Shown here in pieces: positions 5,839-46,995 of a DNA stretch of 46,995 bases. The notes beneath the pieces are model-generated. The model was not told where the DNA came from and did no database searches. It saw only the letters and a program-made list of their open reading frames with translations. The position numbers and the translations under genes were made by a program. The first letter of the stretch is position 1; every line of letters starts with the position of its first letter. Source of the stretch: an uncultured Desulfurococcaceae archaeon. GTDB lineage: Archaea > Thermoproteota > Thermoprotei_A > Sulfolobales > NBVN01. The stretch covers positions 1 to 46,995 of the forward strand of contig CAZFVC010000002.1 of NCBI GenBank assembly GCA_964522175.1, given 5' to 3'.

Positions 5839-5844
5839 TCTTCA

Positions 5845-7473: not shown

Positions 7474-7476
7474 CTC

Positions 7477-9222: not shown

Positions 9223-9488
9223 GTCGACTCCCCCTCAAACCTCTCACTCTTTTTGATAAGGAATAGTATGACTGCGGGGTAAAGCCCTACAGCTACAGGT
9301 ACATATACAAGCACTATGTCTGGTGCCATGAGGAGGTAGAACAGAAATGCGTAGGCGGTGCTCTGGATGGCTGAGTATAACACTGCTTTCACTAAGTCTC
9401 TCTCCGTAATCGCCATATAGACAGCTACCAAGGAAATGATTCCAAGAAGCCCCATCACCGCATATATTAATGTTTCCTGCGAGATCAT
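9219..9488 (-). CDS. MbhD-like subunit (DUF4040 / MrpA C-terminal-like)
   Basis: 89 aa. ERDLVKAVLYSAIQS...APDIVLVYVPVAVG matches the MbhD/DUF4040 pattern. Confidence 0.6.
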   Translation of the reverse strand: MISQETLIYAVMGLLGIISLVAVYMAITERDLVKAVLYSAIQSTAYAFLFYLLMAPDIVLVYVPVAVGLYPAVILFLIKKSERFEGEST

Positions 9489-9871
9489 TTCTCCTCCACC
9501 TCCACGAACTCCTCCAAATGATCAACCACTTTAGGTTCAACCTTAGCTGCCTTCGATCGGTAGGCAGCTCTAGCTAAAGCATGAGAGCCTGCGGGAGCAA
9601 GAATAAGTATCAGGAAAGCCGTAATCACTGCACCACCAGCCATAAACCATCTATATTCACCCAAAAACTCGGAACCTGCCGCAACGAGTGCTGCCCCTAT
9701 TAATGGAAGGAAAGCCCCCCATATAGTGCCAATAGTTGCGGCATGAAGCCTTACAAAAAAGTTAGGGAATCTAAGCATCCCTATCGAAGCTATTAAATCT
9801 GAGATAACACCCACTACTATCATTACCCCGCCGATCCAGACCAAGATCCAATCTAGAGGAACTCCTGCCAT
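9485..9871 (-). CDS. MrpG/MnhG-like subunit (MbhC-like)
   Basis: GMLRFPNFFVRLHAATIGTIWG is the MnhG signature. 128 aa. Confidence 0.75.
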   Translation of the reverse strand: MAGVPLDWILVWIGGVMIVVGVISDLIASIGMLRFPNFFVRLHAATIGTIWGAFLPLIGAALVAAGSEFLGEYRWFMAGGAVITAFLILILAPAGSHALARAAYRSKAAKVEPKVVDHLEEFVEVEEK

Positions 9872-9873
9872 GA

Positions 9874-10161
9874 CTACTCACCCATCTCCTTGGCCTCCAA
9901 ATACTTAGCCACGTAAAGGTCTAGGGCATAAACCCACAGAGCGAGAACTATAGCTGTAGGGATTAGTATAGGTGATTTGAAGAATATGGCTAAAACCACT
10001 AGGAAGGCCGCGAGGTCATATGTCATAGCATCAATAGCTAATGTTGTGTCAGGTATGGTCGGGCCTTTCAATGCCCTTATGGAGTAAAGCGTGAAAGCGA
10101 TAATATACACAGGAATTGTAACCATTATTAGCGTAGTTACGACCTCCTGAAGGCCCATCAT
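9874..10161 (-). CDS. MrpF/MnhF-like subunit (MbhB-like)
   Basis: 95 aa. ALKGPTIPDTTLAIDAM resembles the MnhF GPTxxDRxxAxD motif. Confidence 0.7.
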   Translation of the reverse strand: MMGLQEVVTTLIMVTIPVYIIAFTLYSIRALKGPTIPDTTLAIDAMTYDLAAFLVVLAIFFKSPILIPTAIVLALWVYALDLYVAKYLEAKEMGE

Positions 10162-10556
10162 TCCCCGCTCACCTTCTTCAAAGTGCTTAAGGAGATGTCC
10201 CGAGAAAAGATCTTTACGGGAGAGGCCAAGCGGTACTCGGATGTAGTCACATATGCATTAGCTGGGCATATGGATACACATCTGTAGCAATAGATGCAAC
10301 GCATGTAATCAATTACTGGAAACATTTTCTTCGGGTTCCTCTTAGGCTGTTCATACTCTTCAGGAATCTTCTCCATTTTAATTGCATTGGCGGGACAATC
10401 GATCATGCAGAGAGAGCAACCAATGCACTTCTGGAGATCGGGATAATGCCTACCTCTAGCATCCGGTTCTATCTCAGTTTTTTCTTTAGGATATTGGATA
10501 GTGGCCGGCTTACTGAAAATACTTTTCAGAACCTCCTTAAGTAAAGGAACACCCAT
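10158..10556 (-). CDS. mbhN: 2x[4Fe-4S] ferredoxin-like subunit MbhN (NuoI-like)
   Basis: Two CxxCxxCxxxCP motifs: CIGCSLCMIDCP and CIYCYRCVSICP. Confidence 0.85.
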   Translation of the reverse strand: MGVPLLKEVLKSIFSKPATIQYPKEKTEIEPDARGRHYPDLQKCIGCSLCMIDCPANAIKMEKIPEEYEQPKRNPKKMFPVIDYMRCIYCYRCVSICPANAYVTTSEYRLASPVKIFSRDISLSTLKKVSGE

Positions 10557-11761
10557 CAGATCCTCCCCCTCACCACCTGCTTCATAGGTACTTTCCTCCT
10601 CTCACCTGAAACCAGGTCAACAACAGTAACCCTCTCCATACATGATATGCATGGATCGAAGCTTACCAGTATGGCAGGGACGTCCGCAATAGTGTGATTA
10701 AGGTAAACGAATCCAGAGTTGATTATGTTAGTGAATGAAGGAGTCCTTATTTTAACTCTATAGGGCTTATCCCCACCTTTACTCATAACGTAGTAAGTCA
10801 ATTCACCTCGAGGAGCCTCTGCACGGGTGAATGCCTCACCTTCAGGGAACCTTCTGGGCAACCTCTTCTCATCGACGATGGCTTCTCCTTGAGGGAGATG
10901 CGTCAAGATGTACTCACTCATCTCAATAGAGTTAAGTGTCTCTTCAAACCTCACCATACTTCTACCCCAGGAGTCGAGCTCTTTCCTAACAACTAGCCTG
11001 TATGGAACCTCGTCATAGACCTCGTATTTATCGTGATACCTCGCATCAGTACTTATGGAAGATCCCCTAGCTATAGGACCTAGAAGACTGTAGGAGGTTA
11101 TCTCGTTAGGAGTTATTTTCCCTACCCCCATCAATCTCTTCCTAACGGTGATGTCCTCCTCGAAAACCTTCATATAGTACTCGACTCTAGGCCTCAATTT
11201 TTTCAAAAGGTCAAGTATTCGCTCAGCCTTTAATGAATCTATATCCCTTCTAACCCCTCCTACCATATTGTAGTCAGCTATCACTCTATTTCCGGTAACT
11301 ATTTCCTTAGCCTTCATCACAAGTTCTCTGTCCTTCATCATGTGCATGAAAAGAGTTTCATATCCGAGAATCTCAGCCATTATCGCAAGGATCAAAATAT
11401 GGCTATGAATTCTCTCAAGCTCCATGACGAGTGTTCTTAAATATTTTGCTCTCTGAGGAGGGTCTTTATCCAGTATCTGCTCTAAGGCTCTGACGTAGCA
11501 ATTTGCGTGTACACCGTTACAAATGCCGCAAACCCTGCCAACAATGAAGATGTCTCTATAGAATGTATTCCTTTCAGCAAGCTTCTCAATCCCTCTGTGA
11601 TTATATCCAGTATTGATCTCTACCCTAATCACTTCCTCCCCTGAGGCATATACCTTAAGAAGTATGGGTTCATGGACTGCTGGATGTTGAGGACCTACAG
11701 GAACCTCAAGAAGCATCGGTATTTCCAGTGCCTTAGTTGCCTTATCTACTGACCCACTCAC
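10556..11761 (-). CDS. mbhL: Group-4 [NiFe] hydrogenase large subunit MbhL
   Basis: L1 motif RVCGICNGVH (Cys78/Cys81) and C-terminal DPCISCMER (Cys371/Cys374), followed by a 24-residue tail (VTVVDL...RGRI). This is a protease substrate configuration. Confidence 0.9.
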   Translation of the reverse strand: MSGSVDKATKALEIPMLLEVPVGPQHPAVHEPILLKVYASGEEVIRVEINTGYNHRGIEKLAERNTFYRDIFIVGRVCGICNGVHANCYVRALEQILDKDPPQRAKYLRTLVMELERIHSHILILAIMAEILGYETLFMHMMKDRELVMKAKEIVTGNRVIADYNMVGGVRRDIDSLKAERILDLLKKLRPRVEYYMKVFEEDITVRKRLMGVGKITPNEITSYSLLGPIARGSSISTDARYHDKYEVYDEVPYRLVVRKELDSWGRSMVRFEETLNSIEMSEYILTHLPQGEAIVDEKRLPRRFPEGEAFTRAEAPRGELTYYVMSKGGDKPYRVKIRTPSFTNIINSGFVYLNHTIADVPAILVSFDPCISCMERVTVVDLVSGERRKVPMKQVVRGRI

Positions 11762-11763
11762 CG

Positions 11764-12213
11764 CTAAACACCCGAGTCTTTTCTTAGCGGGAATATGCCT
11801 TTCTCCGCTATGTCTGTGGGAACGAAGAATGATCTTTTTAGGTGAGGATTCCCTTCGAACACTACACCCAGCAGATCATATGTCTCACACTCAGCGCTTA
11901 ATGCACCGGGTAACTCATCAAGAATTGACTCAATCCTAGGATCTTCTCTACTTAAGAAAGTTCTGAGGACGATATACTTGTCTATACTATATATATTAAT
12001 GAAATAGTCAACTCTTATGATGCCTTTATCCTGGAAATCTGTTCCAACAATATTACTCAAATAAAGCCCAGTAATTCCGTAGGAAGATTTAAGCTTCTTT
12101 ATAGCTTCCTTCACTTTAGAGGGGTCAACCTCAAAGACTAGAGAATCAGGCTTGACTGTTCCGGAGGGCTTAGCCAGACCCTCCAAAATCTTTGCAGGAT
12201 CATCCGCTGGCAC
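11764..12213 (-). CDS. mbhK: NuoC-like subunit MbhK
   Basis: 149 aa. Its position between the small and large subunits and the AECETYDLLGVVFEGNPHLKR motif are typical of NuoC/HycE-N. Confidence 0.75.
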   Translation of the reverse strand: MPADDPAKILEGLAKPSGTVKPDSLVFEVDPSKVKEAIKKLKSSYGITGLYLSNIVGTDFQDKGIIRVDYFINIYSIDKYIVLRTFLSREDPRIESILDELPGALSAECETYDLLGVVFEGNPHLKRSFFVPTDIAEKGIFPLRKDSGV

Positions 12214-12655
12214 TTACACTCACCTCCTTCTCTTGGGAGCTCTCCTCAAGTTTCTTAAGTAGTTTAACTATCGCATCCAATATTGCTTCAGGTCTTGGTG
12301 GACATCCAGGGATATAGATATCGACAGGGACTACTTTACCTACTCCACCAACAACCGAGTAGCTTCCCGCAAAAACACCGCCGCTGCATCCGCAGGCCCC
12401 AACGGCAACCACGAATTTGGGACTAGGCATCTGGTCATAGAGCCTCTTAAGCCTCTCAGCAGCCTTTTTGGTCACTCCTCCCGTGACTATAAGGATGTCT
12501 CCGTGCCTGATTGATGGAGCTAATTTGACTCCGAACCTTTCAGGATCATAAAGAGGTGTAAGGGCAGTAAGCACCTCGATGTCACACCCGTTACAGGCTC
12601 CCGTATTGAAATGAACCAGCCACGGGGTGTAACGAATGATTTTAACCCTGTCCAT
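12200..12655 (-). CDS. mbhJ: Hydrogenase small subunit MbhJ (NuoB-like)
   Basis: Proximal-cluster cysteines are present in GACNGCD, GACGCSGG and IPGCPP. 151 aa. Confidence 0.9.
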   Translation of the reverse strand: MDRVKIIRYTPWLVHFNTGACNGCDIEVLTALTPLYDPERFGVKLAPSIRHGDILIVTGGVTKKAAERLKRLYDQMPSPKFVVAVGACGCSGGVFAGSYSVVGGVGKVVPVDIYIPGCPPRPEAILDAIVKLLKKLEESSQEKEVSVSASG

Positions 12656-12756: not shown

Positions 12757-15087
12757 TTAATTATTCTTCCCTAAGGAAGCAATGACCTGACCAAGAGCAA
12801 TAGAACCATCGTTAGGCGGAACCTCCTCTGGAAGCATTACCTCTAAACCTCTCCCCCTCAAGGCATATCTAATCCCTCTAACCAGATAGTTGTTCACAGC
12901 TGCCCCACCCCCAATAACGACTTTAGTAATTTTCTTGACTATTTTACCATGAATTTCCGCCGCTGCAGAACCCAGCCCATAACCCAATCCAAACTGGAAA
13001 GTTGCCGCAAGAGATCTGAGAGTTGATGAGTCTGACTTAATTCTTTCGGCTATGTACATCAGGGGTTCCACAACAGGTACATTAAGCAAATTCCCCTCCC
13101 CCCGATAAGGAACGAATAGATCCATAGCATCATAAATGATTTTCCCTCCTCTACTGAAAGCCTCTAGCTTTATCGCTGGCTCCCCCTCATAAGACCTACT
13201 TAGGCAAACACCCAAGAGAGCGGAAGCTGCGTCTAAGGCCCTCCCTGTGGAAGATGACTTAACATATCTCCCAGCATTGAGTGCTGTACTAAGTAATTCT
13301 ACCTCATCAACACCACCCTTCAACCCTTTAACGGCTCCTGACTCCTCGAGAACCTGAATGACGTCCTCAAGAGGAATCCTTGTAAGAAGAGAGGTCGCTA
13401 AGTATCTCGCCGGACGAAGAACCGACTCATCCCCGACGAAAGGAAGATACTCGAGTTGAGCAACCCTTTCATAAGTCAGGTCCTCACGGACATAGAGAAC
13501 CTCGCCTCCCCAAATATTACCATCGTCTCCGTAACCCACACCATCCATTACTATTGCAAGAAAGGGCTCCCCTAAAATCCTTCTATCTGCAGCGACTGCT
13601 AAGGCATGAGCGTAATGATGTTGAACCTCCATTAATTCCGCACCCGAATTCTCCGCAATCTCCATTCCCAGCTTTCTCGAAAAATACAAGGGATGCTTAT
13701 CGACGACTACTACTCCCTTACTTAAGTTTATACTGTAATTCCTTATGAAGAACTTAATGTATTTCTCGAGGTCCAGAAGAGTTTCAACATCATCCACATC
13801 ACCTATGTATTGAGTTAGAACAACCTTATTCTCGAAACCGACTGCTCCAGCATTATTTAACTCAGCACCAAATGCCACAACCTCCTTATCGAGGGAAACG
13901 TTAACTTTGAGCCAGCGAGGAGCGTAGCCCCGTCCCCTTCTAATAAGGGTGAGATCCCCGTCAGTGAACCTCACCACAGAATCATCCACTCTATTAACAA
14001 TATCTCTATCATGCACCAGAAAATAATCTACGTAACTCGAGAGCTTACTGAAGGCACACTCCTCATTAATACACATGGGCTTACCCTTAGGGTTGCCGCT
14101 TGTCATAATGAGGAATTTATCCTTCGTGGATTCCAGCAGTAGGTAGTGAAGAGGTGTGTAGGGTGTGAAAACGCCCTCCACATCCATTCCGGGAGAAACA
14201 TATCTGGATACAGGAGAGTCAATTTTCTTTGGCAAAAGAACTATGGGTCTTTCTGGAGAGTTAAAGAGCTTAAGTGCTATCGAATTAATCTCAACTAACT
14301 TCGAAAGAACTCCACTATTCAGCCCCATCACTGCGAAGGGCTTACTTGGTCTATTCTTCCTCTTCCTCAGCTTCAGAACCACTTCATCATCTGTGGCTAG
14401 GGCAGCAATATGATAACCACCTAAACCTTTAACAGCAACTATGTGCCCTTCATCGATAAGCTTAGCTGCTTCCTCTATTGGGTCCTTGCACTCTACATGT
14501 CCACCTTCATTATCAGTTAGCCATAGCCTAGGGCCGTCTAAAGGGCAACTTATTCCTTGAGCATGATAACGCCTCACATTCCGCAGATCCCTGTATTCTT
14601 CCATACATTGAGGGCATAAGGGGTACTTCCTCATGCTGGTGTTTTCCCTATCATAAGGGGTTCTATACATCATTGAGAATCTGGGGCCGCACCATGCACA
14701 CGAATTAAATGCATACCTATACCTCCTATTATTAGGATCCTTTATCTCTCTAAGGCAATGCTCGCATACCGCAAAATCCGGCGGGATCATTGATCTCTTT
14801 ATTTTTTCCTTACTGCTGGGGAGAATGGTAAATTCCTTCACTCCCTTTGGACGCTCCTCGAAAATCTCTACTGCCTCAATAATTGCTGGAGGAGGCTTCT
14901 CCTCCCACATAGCTTTAATGAATTTCCTTATGCTTTCCGATGATCCCTCAATAAAAACCTCTACCTCAGAACCTCCAGCATTCCTCACATATCCTCTAAC
15001 GCCTGTTTTATGAGCTATCCTATGAATAAACGGTCTGAAGCCCACACCTTGCACTAGGCCTTCAATAATTAGTCGGTACGCAGGCAT
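12757..15087 (-). CDS. hypF: Carbamoyltransferase HypF
   Basis: 776 aa. Acylphosphatase N-terminus (VQGVGFRPF), two tandem CxxC-X18-CxxC-type zinc fingers, then YrdC-like and Kae1-like regions. Confidence 0.95.
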   Translation of the reverse strand: MPAYRLIIEGLVQGVGFRPFIHRIAHKTGVRGYVRNAGGSEVEVFIEGSSESIRKFIKAMWEEKPPPAIIEAVEIFEERPKGVKEFTILPSSKEKIKRSMIPPDFAVCEHCLREIKDPNNRRYRYAFNSCAWCGPRFSMMYRTPYDRENTSMRKYPLCPQCMEEYRDLRNVRRYHAQGISCPLDGPRLWLTDNEGGHVECKDPIEEAAKLIDEGHIVAVKGLGGYHIAALATDDEVVLKLRKRKNRPSKPFAVMGLNSGVLSKLVEINSIALKLFNSPERPIVLLPKKIDSPVSRYVSPGMDVEGVFTPYTPLHYLLLESTKDKFLIMTSGNPKGKPMCINEECAFSKLSSYVDYFLVHDRDIVNRVDDSVVRFTDGDLTLIRRGRGYAPRWLKVNVSLDKEVVAFGAELNNAGAVGFENKVVLTQYIGDVDDVETLLDLEKYIKFFIRNYSINLSKGVVVVDKHPLYFSRKLGMEIAENSGAELMEVQHHYAHALAVAADRRILGEPFLAIVMDGVGYGDDGNIWGGEVLYVREDLTYERVAQLEYLPFVGDESVLRPARYLATSLLTRIPLEDVIQVLEESGAVKGLKGGVDEVELLSTALNAGRYVKSSSTGRALDAASALLGVCLSRSYEGEPAIKLEAFSRGGKIIYDAMDLFVPYRGEGNLLNVPVVEPLMYIAERIKSDSSTLRSLAATFQFGLGYGLGSAAAEIHGKIVKKITKVVIGGGAAVNNYLVRGIRYALRGRGLEVMLPEEVPPNDGSIALGQVIASLGKNN

Positions 15088-34132: not shown

Positions 34133-34828
34133 TCACCATCCAAGACTGTTTAACACCTCCTCCATAAGCTTCAAGATTTCATTTATCCCCATAATATCTT
34201 CGTTCCTTAAAACAATGAGAGAGGCTACTGCGCTAAAAACGTACAGAAGCAACTCACCTTTTATTCCAACCTTACTCACAAAGTAAAAAACAATAGTAAC
34301 TATCAAACCACTTAAGATAATTGAAGCAAACATCCATGGAAACATTAAACCTAGTATCCTGACGAACAATGAAAAAAGAATGATTCCAACAATGTAACGA
34401 GGCACCGCCTCAATTACCTTTCCCGGAATTCTGAAGACATTAATTCTGAAGACTGTTAGAAAGTCTCTGCCTAGGGGTAGATCGCCTAGCCTCATATACG
34501 CTAAAGAAAGACCGAAACCTGCCAAAATACTCACAGATGTAATTAAAGGATACTCAATATAGGACACATCTCTTAGATAAAGAAGTAGGAAAAACAGAGA
34601 TGGAAGCAATAAAATCACAACCTCTTTGGAGACCCTTAATAGCCTCATCACTAGGGTTGCGGCAAGAGCTAAGGAGCATGCGAGGACAGTGAACTCAAGC
34701 AAACCAAGTGAAGCCCCTATTCCGATGGATGAAACCAGGATAACTCCGAAACTCCAGTATCTTCTAAAGTAAAGGAGGAGTAGAGAGGCCAGCATTAATG
34801 ACCCGATAACTGCACTCAGGAGAATCAT
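34133..34828 (-). CDS. Polytopic membrane protein
   Basis: 231 aa with about 6 TM segments. 4-nt overlap with the upstream gene. No motif recognised. Confidence 0.55.
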   Translation of the reverse strand: MILLSAVIGSLMLASLLLLYFRRYWSFGVILVSSIGIGASLGLLEFTVLACSLALAATLVMRLLRVSKEVVILLLPSLFFLLLYLRDVSYIEYPLITSVSILAGFGLSLAYMRLGDLPLGRDFLTVFRINVFRIPGKVIEAVPRYIVGIILFSLFVRILGLMFPWMFASIILSGLIVTIVFYFVSKVGIKGELLLYVFSAVASLIVLRNEDIMGINEILKLMEEVLNSLGW

Positions 34829-36363
34829 TTGGTATCCCCTAAAAGCTTCATTAATTTTGTGAACTCCTTGTAGCTAACCTCCATATTACCGAATCTATTT
34901 CGCTCGTAGGCCATCATCAAACCCTTTAGCCCCTTCTTCAAGTTCTCGCCAAGATTACTTCCTTCTGCAAGAATTTTTCCTACAATTTCTCTATGAGTCC
35001 ATGAAGATTGAATTTCAATGCCTAATCTGCCTGCTAAATCATAAATAGTACTCCAGAAAATACCTATTATTCCCTTACCCATGATAGGAACGTTTTCCTT
35101 AGTCTCACTAGTTAAGAGATTTTGGGGCCGCAAAGAACCTCTCCTAATTACCATAAAGGCCGCTGAAAAAATCGAAGCACCTAAGACTATTAGCAATATC
35201 CAAGCACTTATCGGAGGAATTCCTGAAGGTTCATTAGCCAGTATCTGCCCGCTAGATTTGTTAGCTAAGTAAATGAGAGTTTCCGGGCGTGCATAATTGG
35301 ATATACTCTGCTCATTCACTCTTGCAATTACCTCCTTCACAGTTTCAGGAAGCTTGACTACCACCAAACCATACTCAACAGAACGCTCCTCACCTATTCT
35401 AGCGATGAATCCTATTGAAGAACCTTTACCATTCGAGAGAAGCAACGCTAATATCTTAAGCTCCTCATCATTAATTTCAGGGGCTAACTCTTTATTCTCC
35501 TTCAAATACTTGATGAGCCTATCTAGATCAATAGTCTTAATTAGTTCCCTATTTCTATAGGCAGTTTCAAGCAGTGAGGGGTTAGATATAAAACGCCTAA
35601 GTATTTTCCGGGTATTCGGACCCAATTCCTCAAGCACTATTAATGCCTTCAGGTAATCCTCGTTCTCCAAGCTTCCCTCTTTTGAAATATTTTCTTCAGA
35701 TATGCTGAATGAAGCTAGAAGCGACCCAATAACAATTGAATAATCTCGTGAGGCCCTAATTGATACATTCATAAGTATTTCCTGAGTAAGATTAGATAAA
35801 TCCATGACTGTCTGCAGCTCCTTTACTAGGGGGGTAAAGTAAGCGGGATTACGTAACTTCAGGAAATGAATAAGAACCTTAAGTTTAGAGGAGCTGTAGT
35901 CTAATTTTCCTTGAGAGATCAGTTCCCTAAGGAAGGAAGCGATCTGATAATAGTTCTCGCTATCTGCCTTCTTAATTCCTTCCTCAATCAGTTTAGCAAC
36001 TTCCTCGCCAGTGATTAACGTCTTTTGATGTGATAAGATCTTAAGGGCCTTGAGCAGTGCCCCCGAGACTAAGTAGGGATCTTCGTAACCATTAAGAATG
36101 TTCTCCAGCAGGCTGGAACATACGTCACTCACTGATTCCTCATTTCCAACCGCTAGATAGTTGACTAGCATCCTATACTCTTCCCCATGGCCAGTAGCGT
36201 TTAACCAATCAAGAACAATAGCAGCCGCCGAAATCTCCTCCACTACCTTTCTTGAAATGTTTGGGGAATGCCGAATAGGAATATCGGCGGCCTTAGCCCA
36301 ATAACCGCATAGGCTGAGGAGCAATATGAGTGCCAGAGTAATGCTTAGGAGCCTCCGCACCAT
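34825..36363 (-). CDS. Exported helical-repeat protein with a TM and a C-terminal DUF4129-like cytoplasmic domain
   Basis: 512 aa with a signal peptide, a long extracytoplasmic region, a TM (ISAWILLIVLGASIFSAAFMVI) and a tail ...SWTHREIVGKIL...LMMAYERNRFG resembling DUF4129. Confidence 0.45.
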   Translation of the reverse strand: MVRRLLSITLALILLLSLCGYWAKAADIPIRHSPNISRKVVEEISAAAIVLDWLNATGHGEEYRMLVNYLAVGNEESVSDVCSSLLENILNGYEDPYLVSGALLKALKILSHQKTLITGEEVAKLIEEGIKKADSENYYQIASFLRELISQGKLDYSSSKLKVLIHFLKLRNPAYFTPLVKELQTVMDLSNLTQEILMNVSIRASRDYSIVIGSLLASFSISEENISKEGSLENEDYLKALIVLEELGPNTRKILRRFISNPSLLETAYRNRELIKTIDLDRLIKYLKENKELAPEINDEELKILALLLSNGKGSSIGFIARIGEERSVEYGLVVVKLPETVKEVIARVNEQSISNYARPETLIYLANKSSGQILANEPSGIPPISAWILLIVLGASIFSAAFMVIRRGSLRPQNLLTSETKENVPIMGKGIIGIFWSTIYDLAGRLGIEIQSSWTHREIVGKILAEGSNLGENLKKGLKGLMMAYERNRFGNMEVSYKEFTKLMKLLGDTK

Positions 36364-36414: not shown

Positions 36415-37359
36415 ATGATATTGCTGAGGGAATTAGTGGATAAGGTAGTGAAGGCTTCCTCCTCAGTGCTTGTGGAGAAGGAGCGTGAAGTTACACTCAT
36501 TACCCTAGCAATCATAGCTGGAGGGCATGCCTTAATTGAGGGAGTTCCTGGCATAGCAAAGACGCTTAGTGTTAAGGTAGTTGCTAAAGCTCTGGGGCTG
36601 ACCTTCAGTAGAATTCAGATGACGCCGGATATGCTCCCATCTGACATTATCGGCACTAAGATTATTGACCCGAGAACAGGTGAGGAAAGACTGCTTATAG
36701 GTCCAATAAATGCCAATATAGTTCTGGCAGACGAGATAAATAGAGCCTCCCCCAGAACGCAGTCAGCTCTCTTGGAAGCTATGCAGGAAAGGCAGGTAAC
36801 GATAGAGGGATTAACCGTGAAGCTACCTGAGCCATTCTCAGTAATAGCTACAATGAATCCACTAGAATTAGAAGGCGTTTTCCCGCTTCCGGAAGCTCAG
36901 CTAGACAGGTTTTTCCTTAAAATTAAGGATGTAGGATTAAGTGAAAGCGGGCTTAAAGTTCTGTTGAAGGAGGGCCTAGAAAAGATTGAGGAGAAATACA
37001 GAAAGATGCAAAGCGTATCCAATAGTGAGGAAGTGCTTCAAGCTAGGAAGGACATTGAGAAAGTCTATGTAGATGGAGTCCTCCTTTCGTATATAGCCCG
37101 CATAGTTAGGAACATAAGCTCCCAACCCTCAGTCAGGGCTCCTGTATCCCCGAGGGCTGCCGGAATGTTACTCACACTCTCAAAGGAATTCGCTATAATT
37201 GACGGAAGAGATTACTTAATACCGGATGACGTTAAGAAAGCAGCTATTCCCTCCTTATCACACCGAATATTCCTGAAACCAGAGTTCCTCGCAGAAGGCT
37301 TAACAGGCGAGGAGGTCGTTAAGAAAGCACTTGAGTCAGTGGAAGTGCCCCGGCCGTGA
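36415..37359 (+). CDS. moxR: MoxR-family AAA+ ATPase
   Basis: Walker A EGVPGIAKT, Walker B/sensor VLADEINRASPRTQSALLEAMQERQVTI, and ATMNP...LPEAQLDRF. These are textbook MoxR motifs. Confidence 0.9.
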   Translation: MILLRELVDKVVKASSSVLVEKEREVTLITLAIIAGGHALIEGVPGIAKTLSVKVVAKALGLTFSRIQMTPDMLPSDIIGTKIIDPRTGEERLLIGPINANIVLADEINRASPRTQSALLEAMQERQVTIEGLTVKLPEPFSVIATMNPLELEGVFPLPEAQLDRFFLKIKDVGLSESGLKVLLKEGLEKIEEKYRKMQSVSNSEEVLQARKDIEKVYVDGVLLSYIARIVRNISSQPSVRAPVSPRAAGMLLTLSKEFAIIDGRDYLIPDDVKKAAIPSLSHRIFLKPEFLAEGLTGEEVVKKALESVEVPRP

Positions 37360-38657
37360 AAGCAGAGATCAAAGTGAAGAGAGTGAACACCTCTGGTCTT
37401 CTAATCCTACTCCTTACAATTACTCTCCTTATAGGTACCGGCCTAAGCGGAAACTCCCCCGTAGGAAAGATACTTATAATTGTGGGAGGAAGTTTGGCGA
37501 CACTACTAGGCGGTATCCTAGGACTTCTCAAAATCATTAAACCGGAAATCGAAGGAGAAACAGTAACCGAAACAGCTATCTCCACACTAAAAAGAGGAGA
37601 AGTCGGCAAGACCCTAGTAAAGATTAGGAGTCCAATACTAAGGTTAATGCGTCCCAACATAGTTAAGCTAGAGACGGATGAAGGAATTCATATACTAAAT
37701 AAAACCATAGCAAAAACAGGTGATACATTTCTCGCGAATTTCTCGATTAAAGGAGACACAGGGCTTCATATTCTAGGGCCATTGTATCTAAAGGCATGGC
37801 TCGGAGGAGATTTAATAGAAATAGAGATGGAGATTCCTCTAACATTAAGTGTTAAAATACTTCCTGAGATACCTAAAACAATTCCCATGAGATATGAAAC
37901 CCGAAAATTAATTGCCGGGATAGTGCTAACTAGAAGAAAGGGTAGAGGTGTCGAATTCCTCAGCGTTAGGGAATATGTCCCTGGAGATGATATCTCAAGG
38001 ATTGACTGGAAAGGATCCTTAAGAAGTAGAAATTTGATTATTAAGGAATTCGAAAAGGAATCTCTCGAAACTTTAGGCATCGTTCTAGTATTGAGTGATA
38101 GTAACTTCACAGGTAGAAGACCTTCATACTCAATAATGGCTGACTATGTGCTTGCCTTGGCTAATTCACTGCTAATTTCTGGACTGAAATTAAGGATGGC
38201 TATAGTCACTGAGAGAGGTTACCTAATAACTGAAGAGTGCTCTGGAAGAAGGGATATTTACCGAATTACTGGAGCTTTAGGATCAATTGAGTGGCCTAAA
38301 GAGATTGTGATAAGCTCGTCGCCCCTGAAAATAGCATCATCGTTAGTGCTTGAAAAGATAGCATCGCTAACTGAGGGACCTCTCCTCATCTTCACTGAAA
38401 TTGCCCGAGATGAAGAAATGAAAGCATTAGAGAGAATGCTTCAGGTGTCCACAGTAATTAGGCATTCCGTACTCATTTTCCTCTACACCCCAGAGCTCCT
38501 GAGACTTATCAAGGGAGAGTTAGAGGAGAATGATCTTCAAAATCTAAGATCATTCTTGAAATCATCAGCTGCTTTAACAGATAATCCAAGAATAGAGATA
38601 CTGCTAAGCAGACCTGAGGATGTAGCGCACCTAATTGCGCATGAAGTCCTTATCTGA
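37356..38657 (+). CDS. DUF58-family protein (MoxR partner, degenerate VWA) with N-terminal TM segments
   Basis: VREYVPGDDISRIDWKGSLRSRNLIIKEFEKE is the DUF58 signature. 4-nt overlap with moxR. Confidence 0.85.
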   Translation: MKAEIKVKRVNTSGLLILLLTITLLIGTGLSGNSPVGKILIIVGGSLATLLGGILGLLKIIKPEIEGETVTETAISTLKRGEVGKTLVKIRSPILRLMRPNIVKLETDEGIHILNKTIAKTGDTFLANFSIKGDTGLHILGPLYLKAWLGGDLIEIEMEIPLTLSVKILPEIPKTIPMRYETRKLIAGIVLTRRKGRGVEFLSVREYVPGDDISRIDWKGSLRSRNLIIKEFEKESLETLGIVLVLSDSNFTGRRPSYSIMADYVLALANSLLISGLKLRMAIVTERGYLITEECSGRRDIYRITGALGSIEWPKEIVISSSPLKIASSLVLEKIASLTEGPLLIFTEIARDEEMKALERMLQVSTVIRHSVLIFLYTPELLRLIKGELEENDLQNLRSFLKSSAALTDNPRIEILLSRPEDVAHLIAHEVLI

Positions 38658-39136: not shown

Positions 39137-39823
39137 TTGAGACTGCTGCTGCTTGCAGACATACATGGAAGAACCACATCACTTAGACAGACTTTGATGA
39201 GGGTTAGAGACATTGAGGGTGTGCTTGTAGCTGGAGATATAACTTCCTATACAGGAACCCACTGGGATGAAGTTATCAATTTACTTTCAGAATGGTGTGA
39301 AGACAACGGCTGCACAGCGTATGTAGTTCCGGGAAATGCTGATCCGAAAACGATTATGAGGGTTAAGAAGGAAAAGGTGAAGATACTGCATATAGCTTTG
39401 GAGCCATTTCCTCCATATGTTATTGGAGGGATTGGAGGAGGTTTAGGGTTTCCATTTATGGATATCCCTAGACTTAACGATGTGGAATTGACTCTATATG
39501 TTAAGAGGTTTATTTCCTCCTACGGCCCGGGATTAGCACCTTATTCATGGATATTACTCACACATACACCTCCCTACGGAACTAGGCTTGACATACTTTA
39601 TACTGGAGAGCATGTGGGGTCACATGGAATAAGGTCACTTATCGAGGAGAAAAAGCCTCTTCTAGCGGTCTCTGGACATATACATGAATCTCGAGGCATT
39701 GAGTGCTTGGGGAAGACCGTAATGGTTAATCCAGGACCTAATTACAGAGGATACTTTGCTGTGGCTGAGATTGAAGTAAGCAGCGGAAATGTTGATGTTA
39801 CTCTTATGAAGAACTCACCTTAG
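39137..39823 (+). CDS. Calcineurin-like metallophosphoesterase
   Basis: LLLADIHG, VAGDIT, VPGNAD and SGHIHE are the standard metal-ligand motifs. TTG start. Confidence 0.8.
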   Translation: MRLLLLADIHGRTTSLRQTLMRVRDIEGVLVAGDITSYTGTHWDEVINLLSEWCEDNGCTAYVVPGNADPKTIMRVKKEKVKILHIALEPFPPYVIGGIGGGLGFPFMDIPRLNDVELTLYVKRFISSYGPGLAPYSWILLTHTPPYGTRLDILYTGEHVGSHGIRSLIEEKKPLLAVSGHIHESRGIECLGKTVMVNPGPNYRGYFAVAEIEVSSGNVDVTLMKNSP

Positions 39824-40784
39824 GAGACTTTATCAATTCCTTCACATAAGAAGAGGCCTCGGGACCCTTTGGGCTTCCTAAAAGTCTTTTTGTTAGCCTG
39901 CAAAAACCGCATACTCCATCCCTGGAGGGCATCCCACAGTATTTGCAGGGAAAGACTTCCTCGGTCTTTTGAGGAAGGCTTGGAATCAGCTCCCTAGCTA
40001 TTCCCTTCATAAAATTAATCTTGGTTCCAGGATGCCTTAAATCAAGATTACTTATGAAGTTCCTTATCTCAGTATTTATTACTTTGCTGGAGAAGAAAGG
40101 GCATCTACTTTTAACGAAAGGAATTCCTTTCAGTAAAACATACGCCAGGTTCTCTCGCTCGCTGGTCAGATATAATGGCCTTACCCTACTTACCCCCATT
40201 CCTTCAATAGGACTTGACTCAGGGCCTAGCTTTTTTAAGGCATCATAGTCCCTCATAAGAATTGATTTCATGGCATATGTTGATAAATCATCTAGGTGAT
40301 GACCTAGTGCAACCTTATCTGCTCCAGCCTTTAATGCTACTAAATTAATGAAGTATCTCTTCAGAAGACCGCATACAGAACACAGAGGCCTCCGGCTTTT
40401 TGAGGCTATATCGGGAAGTTGCATACCTATTACATCCTGAAGTCTCACAACAACTAGTCTAATGCCTGTATCCCTACATAAACTCCTTACAGCATTCTCT
40501 GCGAGCTTAGAGTACTCCCCTATTCCTAGGTCTATATGTAAACCTAGGATGCTGAAACCTAACTCCTCAGACAGCTTTGCTAAGACGTATAGCAGCGCTT
40601 GAGAATCTTTTCCTCCTGATAGCGCTACAGCAACTAATTCTCCTCTCCTAATCAGTTTATATCTTTCTATTGTCTCTTTAACCCTTTTCTCATAATACTG
40701 AATAAAGTGATCCTTGCATAAATTAATTCTTGCGTAATGCAGCCTTATAACCGCTCTCTTACCACAAATCGTGCATTTAGCCAG
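39804..40784 (-). CDS. ttuA: TtuA/NcsA-type PP-loop tRNA 2-thiolation ATPase; full-length frame with no ATG/GTG/TTG start
   Basis: The frame is open from 40790 to 39804. The N-terminal Zn finger KCTICGK...LCKDH and the PP-loop SGGKDS lie upstream of the track ORF (which starts at GTG 40448). The downstream region contains CSVCG and SRCPF (Fe-S ligand pattern) and the C-terminal CKYCG...CGFC finger. CTG at 40784-40782 is the only plausible initiator. Confidence 0.75.
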   Translation of the reverse strand: MAKCTICGKRAVIRLHYARINLCKDHFIQYYEKRVKETIERYKLIRRGELVAVALSGGKDSQALLYVLAKLSEELGFSILGLHIDLGIGEYSKLAENAVRSLCRDTGIRLVVVRLQDVIGMQLPDIASKSRRPLCSVCGLLKRYFINLVALKAGADKVALGHHLDDLSTYAMKSILMRDYDALKKLGPESSPIEGMGVSRVRPLYLTSERENLAYVLLKGIPFVKSRCPFFSSKVINTEIRNFISNLDLRHPGTKINFMKGIARELIPSLPQKTEEVFPCKYCGMPSRDGVCGFCRLTKRLLGSPKGPEASSYVKELIKSPKVSSS

Positions 40785-40983
40785 TTGATGTCACCTCATA
40801 AATTTCAATCTCTTCTCCATCAAGTATGAAAACATCCTCAGTGAGCAACTCCTTCTTCCTAACTACAATCACTTGAAGCGAATTGTATCCCAGGTCTTGA
40901 AGCAGCTTCTTTACTGTAATTTTTCTCTTCCGAGGATCGTATTTCAACTCCCTCCCGTCAGGATAAATCACGACTCTAATCAT
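40777..40983 (-). CDS. ThiS/MoaD-like beta-grasp small protein lacking a C-terminal Gly-Gly
   Basis: 68 aa. The pattern ...ITVKKLLQDLGY...VIVVRKKELLTEDVFILDGEEIEIYEVTSTG parallels ThiS/MoaD/TtuB, but it ends -Thr-Gly. It overlaps the putative CTG start of the TtuA-like gene. Confidence 0.55.
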   Translation of the reverse strand: MIRVVIYPDGRELKYDPRKRKITVKKLLQDLGYNSLQVIVVRKKELLTEDVFILDGEEIEIYEVTSTG

Positions 40984-41021: not shown

Positions 41022-42011
41022 CTAGGCAATAAAGGACAGTATTAATGCCAAGAAAGCAAGGCTATATCCATACTTCCATAGGAACCTTATTCCTTGATCA
41101 GGTCTAAATCTAGGCATAGAGTTATCGACCCATGCAATTACTGCCAGCACCACAAAATATTTCACTAAGACTACTATGGCACTCAACCACCAGTTCGCTG
41201 GATTAACAGGCCAAGGCCCTCCAAGGAATAACATCACGTAGAACAAAGGAAGGATAATCTTCTCTATAAACTTTATGAAGAATGCCATCGCCAGCCGGGG
41301 CCCACCTAATTCGGTGAATAGACCCCAGTAGAGCTCTGACTCAGCCTCTGGGAAGTCGAAGGGCTTAATCATTAGTATAGCCATCATACCTATGAACCCT
41401 GAGATTGCTGCAATAAACATTGTTATTGCCGAAAGGAAGGAATCTACCCACAGCCCGGCAGAAACTGTGGATGTCAAGTAGGCACTGTATGGAACAAGTG
41501 TGTGTCTAGCGGCCAGAATCACTGGCGTTAGCAACGAGGATATGTAGATTGGGTCTGCAGATATTAGTAACGCAAGATACCTTCCCGCAGCTATGCTTGA
41601 ATATGGGTTAGGTATAGAGAGTGCTAGATATGCTAATGCTAAAGGCGCCAGCAGTAGAATGTAGGCAATAACTACAATATCGTAAGGTGCCCAGAGAGGC
41701 TGTACAGCCAGAGGGGTCACTAGGCCTAAAGCTATTAAGGCACCGATCGCGAGAACAGCAATGATTAAAGGTGATTTCTTGAGTCCGTACCTATTCACCA
41801 CATCCTCCTTTGCAAGCAGCTTCAGGAAGTCGGCAAGAGGCTGCAGCACACCTGCAGGCCCTGTATACGTAGGACCTCTTCTATATTGAATCCTTCCACT
41901 GAGTTTTCTATAGTACCACTGAGTAACAATAACTAATACAATCATAGTTAACAGGCCAGGATATATTAACGACTGAAGCAGTATGCTTAACCATTCGTTC
42001 ATGGCCACCAC
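41022..42011 (-). CDS. NuoH/MbhM-like membrane subunit of the second complex
   Basis: RRGPTYTGPAGVLQPLADFLKL is the NuoH signature. 329 aa. Paralogue of 4445-5455. Confidence 0.85.
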   Translation of the reverse strand: MVAMNEWLSILLQSLIYPGLLTMIVLVIVTQWYYRKLSGRIQYRRGPTYTGPAGVLQPLADFLKLLAKEDVVNRYGLKKSPLIIAVLAIGALIALGLVTPLAVQPLWAPYDIVVIAYILLLAPLALAYLALSIPNPYSSIAAGRYLALLISADPIYISSLLTPVILAARHTLVPYSAYLTSTVSAGLWVDSFLSAITMFIAAISGFIGMMAILMIKPFDFPEAESELYWGLFTELGGPRLAMAFFIKFIEKIILPLFYVMLFLGGPWPVNPANWWLSAIVVLVKYFVVLAVIAWVDNSMPRFRPDQGIRFLWKYGYSLAFLALILSFIA

Positions 42012-44323: not shown

Positions 44324-44694
44324 TCTTCACTCACCTCCCCCTTCTCCCTTAACTTGTCTACAATAACGGGCTTAGGTGAAACCTCACCTGACTTATGAGC
44401 AGCCTTAGCTAGTATATGGGAGCCTGCTGGGGCTGTGAGCACTATCAGGAGGCCTGCAATCACCGAAATCCCTGCTATATAGTATTTGAATGTAGCCGGC
44501 ATATCCAGTGATATAGCTATCAAAGCAATTCCAGTAAGCGGGTACACTGCCCCGCCAATGCTGCCTACTGTGGCTGCATGAAGCCTCAGGAAGAAGTTGT
44601 TAAACCTATTCATCCCTATAGCAGCAATGACATCGAGGACCCCGCCAAGGAACAGGAGCCCTACACCTATCCAGAATATTATTAGATCTATCAT
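44320..44694 (-). CDS. MrpG/MnhG-like subunit (second complex)
   Basis: GMNRFNNFFLRLHAATVGSIGG. ATG 44694 (an ATGA overlap with the upstream stop) is preferred over the track start at 44751. Confidence 0.75.
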   Translation of the reverse strand: MIDLIIFWIGVGLLFLGGVLDVIAAIGMNRFNNFFLRLHAATVGSIGGAVYPLTGIALIAISLDMPATFKYYIAGISVIAGLLIVLTAPAGSHILAKAAHKSGEVSPKPVIVDKLREKGEVSEE

Positions 44695-44972
44695 TTTCTC
44701 CTCCCCCTCAACAGATACTTTGCTACGTAGATATCCAGGAGGAATACCCAAGCTGCCAGAGGTATAGCCCCAATAGCGAGGTAAGGACTGAGGTAGTAAA
44801 GGGATAGGAGCATGAATATGACGATGAGATCCACCACTAAGGTGTCTATCGCTAGAACCATATCCGGTAAGGTAGGTCCTTTGAAAACCCTATAAGAGTA
44901 AATCAGCATAGCAACGGTATAGAGTATGAAAGCCCCCGGAAGCACGAAACCTAACAAATCGACACTAACCAT
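44691..44972 (-). CDS. MrpF/MnhF-like subunit (second complex)
   Basis: 93 aa. VFKGPTLPDMVLAIDTL parallels 9874-10161. Confidence 0.7.
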   Translation of the reverse strand: MVSVDLLGFVLPGAFILYTVAMLIYSYRVFKGPTLPDMVLAIDTLVVDLIVIFMLLSLYYLSPYLAIGAIPLAAWVFLLDIYVAKYLLRGRRK

Positions 44973-44978
44973 CCATCC

Positions 44979-45476
44979 TCACCTCTTCCCCTTCTTACTC
45001 TCAACCTTCTTAGGCTTCGGAGAAGGAAGCTGCTTTAGGAACCTATCCCTTGTGATAGTTACTCTATATCCTTCAGGTTTCGGAGGCTTAGCAAGCTCCG
45101 TAGGCATAACAAGCGTAGAGTCCTTATCGTTAGTGTATAGCTCAAACCCTGTGGTATCAGTCATTACCAAAGCAGAAAACGGGCAGTACTCAACACAGAG
45201 GCCGCAGAATGTGCACTTATGCAGATCAATCCTTGGGAATCTCTTAGGTTTATTCTGCGGGAAGTCTCCCTCCACAGGCACTAGGTCTATAGCGAATGCA
45301 GGGCAAACAATCTTACACATACCACAACCAGTGCACTTATTGAGATCAAGTATATGCCTCCCTCTCAGATTCTCTGTTTTGAAGGGAGGCTCACTCTTAG
45401 GCACCATTCTAGTATATGGCTTCCGGAACAGGTATTTCACAGTCATACTTAGAGTGGCCCACACCATTTCCATCAC
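44979..45476 (-). CDS. 2x[4Fe-4S] NuoI/MbhN-like subunit with a Lys-rich C-terminal tail (second complex)
   Basis: CTGCGMCKIVCP and CTFCGLCVEYCP motifs. An extra C-terminal ~45 aa ends in PKPKKVESKKGKR. Confidence 0.85.
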   Translation of the reverse strand: MMEMVWATLSMTVKYLFRKPYTRMVPKSEPPFKTENLRGRHILDLNKCTGCGMCKIVCPAFAIDLVPVEGDFPQNKPKRFPRIDLHKCTFCGLCVEYCPFSALVMTDTTGFELYTNDKDSTLVMPTELAKPPKPEGYRVTITRDRFLKQLPSPKPKKVESKKGKR

Positions 45477-46582
45477 CTATCTATATCTGGAGAACACGGA
45501 TCTAGGGACTTGACTATAATCGGGAAGTCAGCGATTGTTACCTCCTCGTTATTAATGATGTGTTTTACAGCAGTCGTCATTAACGGCATTGACACACTCC
45601 TTAAACGAACCCTGTATGGCTGCCTTCCACCGTTACTCACTATATGTATGAAGTACTCTCCTCTAGCCGCTTCAACCCTGGCAATACCTACGCCTTTAGG
45701 AGCCGCCAATGGTAGCTTAATTCTGTGAGGTTCACCGGGTCTGACTTCCTCCACGGCCTGCCTAATGATCCTCAGGCTCTGATACACTTCCTTAAACCTC
45801 ACTACGCTTCTTGCATAGGCGTCTGCCTCAGTCATTGTGGGAACGTCAAAGGTTACTTTATCGTAGTTTTCGTATGGGACAACCTTCCTCACATCGTAAG
45901 GCACTCCAGCCGCTCTGAGGCTGGGTCCCGTTACACCCATCCTTATAGCGTCATCCGCTTTCAGAATGCCTATTCCCTGAGTCCTTGCCCTAAACACTCG
46001 GTTCTTCAGAAGTGCTGACTCAATATCCTCAACTATATCCTCGACCTTATTGGTTACTTCCAGAGTTCTTTCCTTGAATCCTTCAGGAACGTCCCATCGA
46101 ATACCTCCCGGAACAGAAAAGCTGTGATATACACGATGTCCAACCACCCATCCAAACCACTTAAGTATCTCCTCCCTTGCAGCAATTGCCCAGAATCCAA
46201 CTGTCCGTAGCCCTGTAGCACCAGCCATGAAGTTAACCCAGAACATATGTGAAGCTATTCTGCCGAACTCGGCCTGAATCATTCTCACATATTTAGCCTT
46301 CTCAGGAATGTCTATCTTAAAGATTCTATCCACGGCCTCCGCGTAACCTAATTCTAGGCTATCCGGGTCCTCGACACAGAAACGGTAACCCATCACTATA
46401 TTCATTTCCCATGTCCTGAACTCCATCATTTTCTCAAATCCTCTATGGAGGAAGCCGGGAACAAGCTCCGCATCAACTACTCTCTCCCCATCAACCCAGA
46501 CTTTATACCCTACATTCCCCGGGACACCGGGATGTTGAGGCCCGAAGTAAAGCATAACTGTCTTGCTTCCATTACCTCCCAT
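45473..46582 (-). CDS. NuoD/MbhL-like 'large subunit' with a Cys-x-x-Asp pair in place of each NiFe CxxC motif and no processing tail
   Basis: 369 aa. RFC69VED72 aligns residue-for-residue with RVC78GIC81 of 10556-11761. DPC363SPD366IDR369 aligns with DPC371ISC374MER377. The protein stops exactly at the Arg. Confidence 0.85.
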   Translation of the reverse strand: MGGNGSKTVMLYFGPQHPGVPGNVGYKVWVDGERVVDAELVPGFLHRGFEKMMEFRTWEMNIVMGYRFCVEDPDSLELGYAEAVDRIFKIDIPEKAKYVRMIQAEFGRIASHMFWVNFMAGATGLRTVGFWAIAAREEILKWFGWVVGHRVYHSFSVPGGIRWDVPEGFKERTLEVTNKVEDIVEDIESALLKNRVFRARTQGIGILKADDAIRMGVTGPSLRAAGVPYDVRKVVPYENYDKVTFDVPTMTEADAYARSVVRFKEVYQSLRIIRQAVEEVRPGEPHRIKLPLAAPKGVGIARVEAARGEYFIHIVSNGGRQPYRVRLRSVSMPLMTTAVKHIINNEEVTIADFPIIVKSLDPCSPDIDR

Positions 46583-46988
46583 ACTTATACCCCCCGTAAT
46601 ACACTTTAGCTACCCACTCATGCGTATTCACATCCTTCCGATGAGGAGGTGGCCCTTCCCAATTCTCATCAAGTATCCACTTAGAGAGGACCGGATGGCC
46701 CTTGAACTCCACACCCATCATCTCATGAACTTCTTTTTCAATATAGTACGCTATGGGATGAATATCATGTACCGAGTCTATTACTGGATCATTCCGAGGA
46801 ACGAGCGTCTTAACCCAAATCTGTGATCCATCATTAACATTGGCGACAATGTAATAGACTTCAATCACCCCTTCTTTCGGCAGATCAACCGTGTTTATAT
46901 TCATGAATAGCTTGTATCCCTTCTCTGCAAGCTCTTTCAGTACTTCCCTTATCCTCTCCCTCTTCACGTTAGTGACGCATATTCTCAA
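46572..46988 (-). CDS. NuoC/MbhK-like subunit (second complex)
   Basis: 138 aa. YYIEKEVHEMMGVEFKGHP is NuoC-like. TTG start with an in-frame TGA at 46993-46995. The expected NuoB-like gene would lie beyond the window edge. Confidence 0.7.
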   Translation of the reverse strand: MRICVTNVKRERIREVLKELAEKGYKLFMNINTVDLPKEGVIEVYYIVANVNDGSQIWVKTLVPRNDPVIDSVHDIHPIAYYIEKEVHEMMGVEFKGHPVLSKWILDENWEGPPPHRKDVNTHEWVAKVYYGGYKYGR

Positions 46989-46995
46989 ATCCTCA

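Follow-up and report, generated by a model that had tools for sequence, protein, structure and literature searches.

We examined a stretch of 46,995 nucleotides from an uncultured Desulfurococcaceae archaeon (assembly GCA_964522175.1, contig CAZFVC010000002.1, positions 1 to 46,995; called here the window). At its far end, on the minus strand, lies a 12-gene operon related to the Mbs and Mbx operons of other anaerobes, cut by the window end. Our main subject is its gene for the L subunit, a relative of the large subunit of [NiFe] hydrogenases in which two of the metal-binding Cys are replaced by Asp. The genes of the operon within the window, in order of transcription, are:

46572-46995, minus strand: K domain (NuoC/MbsK-like), the 3' part of a J-K fusion gene truncated by the window end; Pfam Complex1_30kDa
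45473-46582, minus strand: L subunit (MbsL/MbxL type), assigned by its match to 6u8y_L, column conservation, phylogeny and an AlphaFold2 model
44979-45476, minus strand: N subunit (NuoI/MbsN-like) with two CxxCxxCxxxC [4Fe-4S] motifs; Pfam Fer4 families and the NCBIfam NuoI family
44691-44972, minus strand: MrpF-like membrane subunit; Pfam PF04066
44320-44751, minus strand: MrpG/MnhG-like membrane subunit; Pfam PF03334
44072-44323, minus strand: MbhD-like membrane subunit; Pfam PF13244
43291-44091, minus strand: MnhB-like membrane subunit; Pfam PF04039
42881-43294, minus strand: MnhC/NuoK-like membrane subunit; Pfam PF00420
42367-42951, minus strand: MnhE-like subunit; Pfam PF01899
41999-42370, minus strand: orphan small subunit of 123 amino acids (aa), two hydrophobic helices flanking a conserved loop; conserved in seven loci and in Staphylothermus marinus
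41022-42011, minus strand: M subunit (NuoH/MbsM-like), membrane anchor of the peripheral arm; Pfam PF00146

The L gene runs from an ATG to a stop codon included in its coordinates, and encodes 369 aa with only two Cys, C69 and C363. The protein falls in Pfam family PF00346 and is a homologue both of NuoD and of the [NiFe] large subunit. Its HRGFEK motif begins at residue 46, with C69 found 23 positions after the His, and the two motifs of interest are R-F-C69-V-E-D72 and D-P-C363-S-P-D366-I-D-R369, the latter followed directly by the stop. The window supplies its own reference for these motifs, in a second and complete cluster with its flanking genes:

12757-15087: HypF
4445-12655, minus strand: complete Mbh-type group-4 cluster, J K L N F G D B C E H I M
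10556-11761, minus strand: MbhL of that cluster, the group-4 large subunit, 401 aa; match to P. furiosus MbhL
3910-4443: HycI-type protease
3136-3909: NUBPL/ParA-type P-loop ATPase
2745-3143: HypA

The MbhL of this cluster has Cys at positions 78, 81, 88, 371 and 374. Its HRGIEK starts at residue 55, with C78 again 23 positions on, and its motifs read R-V-C78-G-I-C81 and D-P-C371-I-S-C374-M-E-R377, with 24 further residues beyond the Arg, which one would expect a HycI-type protease to cleave off. Its best match in the PDB is Pyrococcus furiosus MbhL (6cfw_L, 4.5e-67), with both CxxC motifs aligned; this match and the HypF, HypA and HycI-type genes beside its cluster mark it as a bona fide group-4 [NiFe] large subunit. 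L is 32% identical to it, and at the shared 23-position spacing C69/D72 of L align with C78/C81, and C363/D366 with C371/C374.

In [NiFe] hydrogenases the second Cys of each CxxC pair bridges Ni and Fe, while the first is a terminal ligand of Ni. This textbook assignment fits the placing of MbhL Cys377 at the bridging position, Cys374 of the same protein corresponding to DvMF Cys546 (PMC11228991). L has thus lost both bridging thiolates and kept both terminal-Ni Cys, and with acidic residues for bridging Cys no NiFe(CO)(CN)2 centre could be built in it. It has no C-terminal extension, its final residue R369 being the conserved Arg, so the endopeptidase maturation step is unneeded. The full set of features that marks a group 4 [NiFe] large subunit (RxCGxC and DPCxxC with four Cys, and a cleavable extension) is thus absent from L. 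Gly22 of L aligns with a Glu of the window MbhL, which we take to be the equivalent of the proton donor Glu21 of P. furiosus MbhL. The marks of a complex I NuoD (quinone-binding His and Tyr, no NiFe Cys) are likewise absent: in the sequence alignment Pro21 and Val70 of L stand at the positions of H38 and Y87 in the quinone site of Nqo4. The original prediction, made from the sequence alone, had drawn this motif alignment with its 23-residue spacing from HRG(I/F)EK to Cys, had seen Asp at the second position of both pairs with the terminal-Ni Cys kept, and had concluded that L follows neither the canonical [NiFe] nor the NuoD pattern and needs no C-terminal processing; the residue positions, the quinone-site residues and the tree described below uphold these points.

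Among solved structures L matches P. furiosus MbsL best (6u8y_L; E=2.3e-82 by HMMER, full length, ~45% identity), with Nqo4 (3.5e-65) and MbhL (1.7e-38) both far behind. MbsL belongs to MBS, a membrane-bound reductase of sulfane sulfur, as MbhL does to the membrane-bound hydrogenase (MBH). It reads R-I-C85-V-P-E88 and C385-P-P-D388-I-D-R391, R391 being its last residue, and C69, D72, C363, D366 and R369 of L correspond to C85, E88, C385, D388 and R391. Of the four NiFe Cys of MbhL, MbsL keeps only C85 and C385, and it has no NiFe site (PMC7684303; PMC8165549). These two Cys sit beside the proximal cluster, a C85A/C385A enzyme retains polysulfide reduction, and that cluster, a [4Fe-4S] centre bound by only three Cys of MbsJ, is given as the site of catalysis (PMC7684303). 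Reviews find it surprising that the MbsL cysteines are conserved though non-catalytic (PMC8165549). The Cys/acidic plus Cys/acidic pattern is the published hallmark of MbsL/MbxL, not a new metal site.

With P. furiosus MbsL, then, L shares the same two Cys, an acidic residue at both former bridging positions, a C-terminus of the form C-x-P-D-I-D-R without extension and the absence of the quinone His and Tyr, and the J, K and N partners of its operon are also MBS-like (see below). The two proteins differ in that L has Asp72 (C-V-E-D, typical of the Desulfurococcales clade) where MbsL has Glu (C-V-P-E), and in the beta1-beta2 loop, H-P-G-x-P-G-N in L and H-M-A-T-E-N in MbsL. MbhL, whether from P. 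furiosus (6CFW chain L) or from the window, resembles L in fold, superfamily, HRGxEK-to-Cys spacing and an operon layout with an Mrp-like module; it has however the complete set of four Cys, an extension at the C-terminus, the Glu that donates protons and hyp genes alongside, and L has none of these. NuoD, Nqo4 and the 49-kDa subunit share with L the fold, PF00346 and a C-terminal acidic-x-D-R ending at Arg, yet have lost all four Cys and possess the quinone His and Tyr, where L has two Cys, Pro and Val.

We aligned the 120 closest database homologues of L and examined the columns of C69, D72, C363 and D366, as the original prediction had suggested. The Cys/[DE] plus Cys/[DE] pattern is present in 117 of the 120, and is therefore no chance event in L; nearly all of the homologues end at Arg. 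Taken singly, the Cys positions are Cys in 116-117 and the acidic positions acidic in 119-120 of the 120. Carriers of the pattern include the S. marinus 'mbxL' and proteins from Thermosphaera, Thermogladius, Desulfurococcus, Kosmotoga and Fervidobacterium. C-V-E-D is found in every Desulfurococcales-like homologue except one (P0004, with C-V-E-E), and the S. marinus F1 "membrane bound protein complex subunit mbxL" (P0039; C-V-E-D / C-P-P-D-I-D-R) is identical to L at all four positions; Thermotogae homologues are mostly C-V-P-E / C-x-P-E-I-D-R. Three members of the MbsL-type clade (P0059, P0104 and one other) have lost both Cys and kept the acidic residues, with N/A, N/T and N/V at 69/363, and these natural losses of the Cys pair speak for its dispensability in some lineages.

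For a wider view, 150 diverse representatives were added from a search of 1.84 billion cluster representatives. From a MAFFT FFT-NS-2 alignment of 182 sequences we built a distance-based neighbor-joining tree (173 sequences, 353 columns, 100 bootstraps). The widened set falls into three motif classes: CCCC, that of the hydrogenases; C[DE]C[DE]; and patterns like those of NuoD, D-S-V-E among them, the NuoD-type representatives being mostly x-x-x-[DE], acidic at the fourth position. An acidic fourth position and an I/V-D-R ending are thus generic to NuoD and MbsL and not special to L; MbsL-specific are only the two Cys, C69 and C363, and an acidic residue at 72. In the tree L and P. furiosus MbsL share a split of 36 sequences, 33 of them with C[DE]C[DE]. 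Such a split, dominated by C[DE]C[DE] and without any CCCC sequence, was recovered in 100/100 bootstraps, as was the subclade of L with S. marinus mbxL. L groups with MbsL and not with the bulk of the NuoD-type representatives.

The original prediction had likened L to the Mbx/Mbs proteins, which the MbsL match and the bootstraps (100/100) bear out. It had also taken the symmetric Cys/Asp arrangement for something new, and had named beforehand, as an outcome that would remove the novelty, the nesting of L within the MbsL clade that we find here; with C85/E88 and C385/D388 in MbsL, and the four residues identical in S. marinus mbxL, the arrangement was already known. As for the different metal site that it had drawn from the Cys/Asp arrangement, this is unlikely, given that the C85A/C385A MBS is active and that catalysis occurs at the MbsJ cluster. 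Its related idea of a sulfane sulfur pocket divides in two: sulfane sulfur is a plausible substrate of the complex, but on the same evidence a pocket formed by the Cys/Asp quartet is unlikely. L is a further member, from an uncultured Desulfurococcaceae archaeon, of the known MbsL/MbxL type.

Database names conceal this relationship. L passes the NCBIfam model NF004739, 'NADH-quinone oxidoreductase subunit D' (score 373.6 bits, cut-off 360), and its homologues are mostly named 'NuoD'; automated annotation mislabels the L subunits of the Mbs/Mbx type as complex I subunits. Structure prediction confirms the superfamily, does not discriminate within it and adds nothing to what the sequence tells. 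An AlphaFold2 model of L made from a 45-sequence alignment (pLDDT 91.1, pTM 0.91), when searched against the PDB with Foldseek, gave MbsL and complex I 49-kDa chains that were inseparable at a TM-score of ~0.92, 6u8y_L having the top identity (39%) and the best target-normalised TM-score (0.91).

The J-K reading frame is open to the window end, so that the NuoB/MbsJ-like half of the fusion and the upstream H gene lie outside. The exact L protein was recovered only on one 8.3-kb contig that is likewise cut upstream. A longer locus (L002) is available from a metagenome-assembled genome (MAG) of an uncultured Desulfurococcaceae archaeon, with 97% nucleotide identity over 5974 bases and an L protein 98% identical. 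There the J-K fusion (6084-7112) encodes 342 aa, the K domain being its C-terminal half, and is preceded by a 513-aa MrpD-like H gene. The gene order of the operon is H-JK-L-N-F-G-D-B-C-E-x-M, and these 12 genes, including the J-K fusion (~340 aa), keep their order in seven Desulfurococcales MAG loci.

The J half from L002 matches MbsJ best (1.4e-37, against 1.9e-14 for MbhJ), and aligns to it without gaps through all four MbsJ Cys. Compared with the window MbhJ it lacks 4 residues ahead of the first Cys and gains 1 behind the second, for a net shortening by 3; the shortened loop around the CxxC of MbsJ is the reason given for the inability of one Cys to ligate the cluster (PMC7684303). N, the presumed entry point of ferredoxin, has as its best complex-I-type PDB match MbsN (6u8y_N, 1.2e-19, against 2e-14 for MbhN), and K, like N, matches an MBS chain best among complex-I-type hits. 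With MBS chains as the best matches of J, K and N alike, the peripheral arm is MBS-like throughout. Pfam and NCBIfam searches of the 12-gene operon found no NAD(P)- or flavin-binding domain.

The membrane arm gives a different picture. Pfam matches (MrpF, MnhG, MbhD, MnhB, Oxidored_q2, MNHE and NADHdh) reveal an Mrp-like Na+/H+ module together with the NuoH-like anchor. Two of these genes as listed are probably too long: the true start of the MrpG/MnhG-like gene is probably an internal ATG, giving 124 aa, and that of the MnhE-like gene is probably internal as well, giving 173 aa, both as in the gene calls of locus L001. The M subunit does not distinguish MBS from MBH or complex I, its PDB matches to ND1, MbhM and MbsM all falling at ~1e-16 to 1e-20. 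PDB search with the H subunit is no more discriminating: MbhH (2.8e-41) and MbsH (6.8e-40) score about equally, and MbsH' only 3e-15. MBS has two antiporter-like pumps, H and H', the latter carrying the Loop-1 element, TMH15-16 and the lateral helix, while MBH has one pump and the small MbhI subunit (PMC8165549). A second antiporter-like pump subunit was not encountered in the seven MAG loci or in S. marinus, each of whose operons has one PF00361 gene, of 513-523 aa.

The orphan subunit, between the MnhE-like and NuoH-like genes, occupies the place that the MbhI-like gene has in the window Mbh cluster. It is 114-123 aa long across loci (for example 14363-14713 of L012), with invariant P56-V57-x-x-G60 and D100-W101-Y102. 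It found no match in Pfam, NCBIfam or the PDB (phmmer and profile search), and no homology to the MbhI-like protein of the Mbh cluster by BLASTP or by hhalign (7-sequence profile, probability 2.6%); that protein itself matches the NCBIfam MbhI model only below the cut-off. With no sequence homology shown, 'MbhI-like' is for the orphan subunit a label of position only, and it is from position only that the orphan subunit probably supplies the Loop-1/lateral-helix element.

Other Mbs/Mbx operons place this architecture. One is the S. marinus F1 operon Smar_0645-0657: its mbxL (Smar_0648) belongs to the same clade as L at 51% identity, and it has the same gene order, a single PF00361 gene and an unannotated 116-aa protein before the NuoH-like gene. 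It differs in having separate J and K genes, fused in the window's lineage. The single MnhD/NuoLMN gene of this cluster already appears in Table 4 of the genome paper, from 2009 (PMC2678158), and Tagg_1025-1036 of Thermosphaera aggregans were described as MBX-related (PMC3035292); both clusters are known from genome annotation only. P. furiosus MBS has H and H' where the window's lineage has one H and the orphan protein with two transmembrane segments, and has J and K as separate genes in the order A-G,H,H',M,J,K,L,N. Kosmotoga pacifica, unlike the window operon, has a P. furiosus-like order with two PF00361 genes. Its N (L013, 11123-12952; 609 aa) is joined to a Pyr_redox_2/NAD-binding (SudA/GltD-like) domain, and a rubrerythrin gene comes next; the fusion suggests a direct link to NAD(P)(H), absent from the archaeal clusters. 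The window cluster is a Desulfurococcaceae architectural variant of the Mbs/Mbx family, seen earlier in annotation.

Taking this together, we think it probable that L belongs, as the subunit of MbsL/MbxL type, to a respiratory complex of the Mbs/Mbx family encoded by 12 genes, and that its four positions are what is left of an ancestral [NiFe] site. If the complex works as MBS does in P. furiosus, reduced ferredoxin would pass electrons to the two [4Fe-4S] clusters of N, and these to the J domain, whose proximal [4Fe-4S] cluster would reduce sulfane sulfur (polysulfide) in a chamber bounded by L, J and M. The part of L would be that of chamber wall and, by its beta1-beta2 loop, of coupling, rather than of catalyst, and the energy would move H+ or Na+ through the Mrp-like module and the one H subunit.

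Several points weigh against this reading. The features of the J domain and of the H gene were read from L002 and not from the window, and substrate, metal content and ion coupling are extrapolated from P. furiosus across an identity of 39-45%. With one H and the orphan subunit in place of H and H', the membrane arm differs from that of P. furiosus MBS, so its energetics may differ also. Thermosphaera, a close relative with the cluster, is inhibited in growth by S0, though it produces H2S. Older genome papers label the Desulfurococcaceae clusters 'MBX-related ferredoxin-NADPH oxidoreductase' (PMC3035292). Finally, a purely vestigial role leaves it unexplained that both Cys and both acidic residues are so strictly conserved.

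Three of these doubts, those concerning the membrane arm, Thermosphaera and the label, also feed the alternative that survives best, an oxidoreductase that oxidises ferredoxin and translocates ions but whose acceptor is not sulfane sulfur, be it NAD(P)+ as in the original MBX hypothesis or another. The single-H arm implies a smaller free-energy span than that of the two-pump P. furiosus MBS, and the Kosmotoga homologue has its N subunit fused to the Pyr_redox_2/NAD-binding domain. We nevertheless hold this alternative to be unlikely: the Pfam and NCBIfam searches show neither a NAD(P)- nor a flavin-binding domain in the 12-gene operon, those features of the J domain that are linked to sulfane reduction are conserved as read from L002, Thermosphaera makes H2S from S0, and for P. 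furiosus itself the hypothesis of MBX as a ferredoxin:NADP oxidoreductase has been superseded by direct polysulfide reduction (PMC7684303).

Less likely again is that the Cys2/Asp2 quartet of L forms a new functional site, such as a mononuclear Fe, Ni or Zn centre or a Cys-Cys persulfide/disulfide relay, that reduces the substrate. Conservation of all four positions across the 120 homologues would favour it, as would the surprise of reviewers at Cys conserved yet non-catalytic (PMC8165549). The same residues however bind no cluster in the cryo-EM structure of P. furiosus MBS, whose C85A/C385A form still reduces polysulfide (PMC7684303), the acidic fourth position is common to NuoD proteins that have no metal there, and three close homologues have dispensed with both Cys.

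Two further possibilities can be set aside as highly improbable. A working H2-evolving hydrogenase with a Cys2Asp2-ligated NiFe centre could appeal to the terminal-Ni Cys, the overall fold and the Hyp maturation genes of the same window, yet both bridging thiolates are missing, there is no extension for HycI-type processing, Gly occupies the position of the proton-donor Glu of the window MbhL, L stands with MbsL apart from all CxxC/CxxC sequences in 100/100 bootstraps, and the hyp and hycI genes adjoin the canonical Mbh cluster, not the Mbs-like one. The other possibility is that L is a true NuoD, in a complex I-like enzyme that reduces quinone. Automated annotation has it so from the NF004739 score and the homologue names, and the Foldseek TM-score of ~0.92 to complex I 49-kDa chains would allow it, but it is contradicted by Pro21 and Val70 in place of Nqo4 H38 and Y87, by a membrane arm that is Mrp/Mbh-like without the NuoA/J/L/M/N organisation, and by the clustering of L with MbsL.

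Within the favoured MbsL/MbxL assignment, the Desulfurococcaceae Mbx-type complexes might form a distinct subclass, with an MBS-type catalytic arm, in which L has two Cys and a short-loop J is here fused to K, on a one-pump MBH-like membrane arm whose Loop-1 is provided by the orphan subunit; we offer this tentatively and think it rather doubtful. If true, the complex would be an evolutionary intermediate between MBH and the two-pump MBS, it could yield less energy per electron pair or use a non-polysulfide acceptor (the latter suggested by the presence of the cluster in S0-inhibited Thermosphaera), and the invariant Cys/Asp quartet could hold a structural or regulatory role unseen in P. furiosus.

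As a discovery the L protein counts for little, its pattern being published and similar Desulfurococcaceae operons having been tabulated in 2009-2010. Its practical value lies in annotation: among anaerobic Crenarchaeota, proteins automatically called 'NADH-quinone oxidoreductase subunit D' are subunits of the Mbs type. How pump number scaled from MBH through MBS to complex I is a question on which the orphan subunit and the one-pump architecture bear, and they would make a crenarchaeal complex a useful target for structure determination.

The window shows, in addition, that this uncultured Desulfurococcaceae lineage carries MBH and an MBS-like complex together, mirroring the MBH and MBS pair of Thermococcales. 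The Mrp-like subunits of the two clusters are 35-49% identical, which fits the cassette duplication proposed for S. marinus. Other genes of the window near the Mbs-like cluster are:

40777-40983, minus strand: open reading frame (ORF) of 68 aa overlapping the TtuA-like gene; weak ThiS-like match, E=0.008
39804-40790, minus strand: TtuA/NcsA-like tRNA 2-thiolation gene, directly downstream of the M subunit gene
37356-38657: DUF58 protein
36415-37359: MoxR-type AAA+ ATPase, translationally coupled to the DUF58 protein
34825-36363: 512-aa protein without Pfam match, divergent from and adjoining the MoxR gene

The TtuA-like frame, open from immediately behind a TGA (40791-40793), includes at its N-terminus the zinc-finger motif C-T-I-C. 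It has no ATG, GTG or TTG before residue ~115, and would therefore need CTG or ATT as a non-canonical start, or else coupling to the ORF before it. We considered whether the gene is truncated and rejected this, the frame being open through the N-terminal CxxC; L001 and L002 carry the same shortened gene call. The segment 34825-38657 looks like a MoxR/DUF58 chaperone-like module, unrelated to the Mbs-like cluster.

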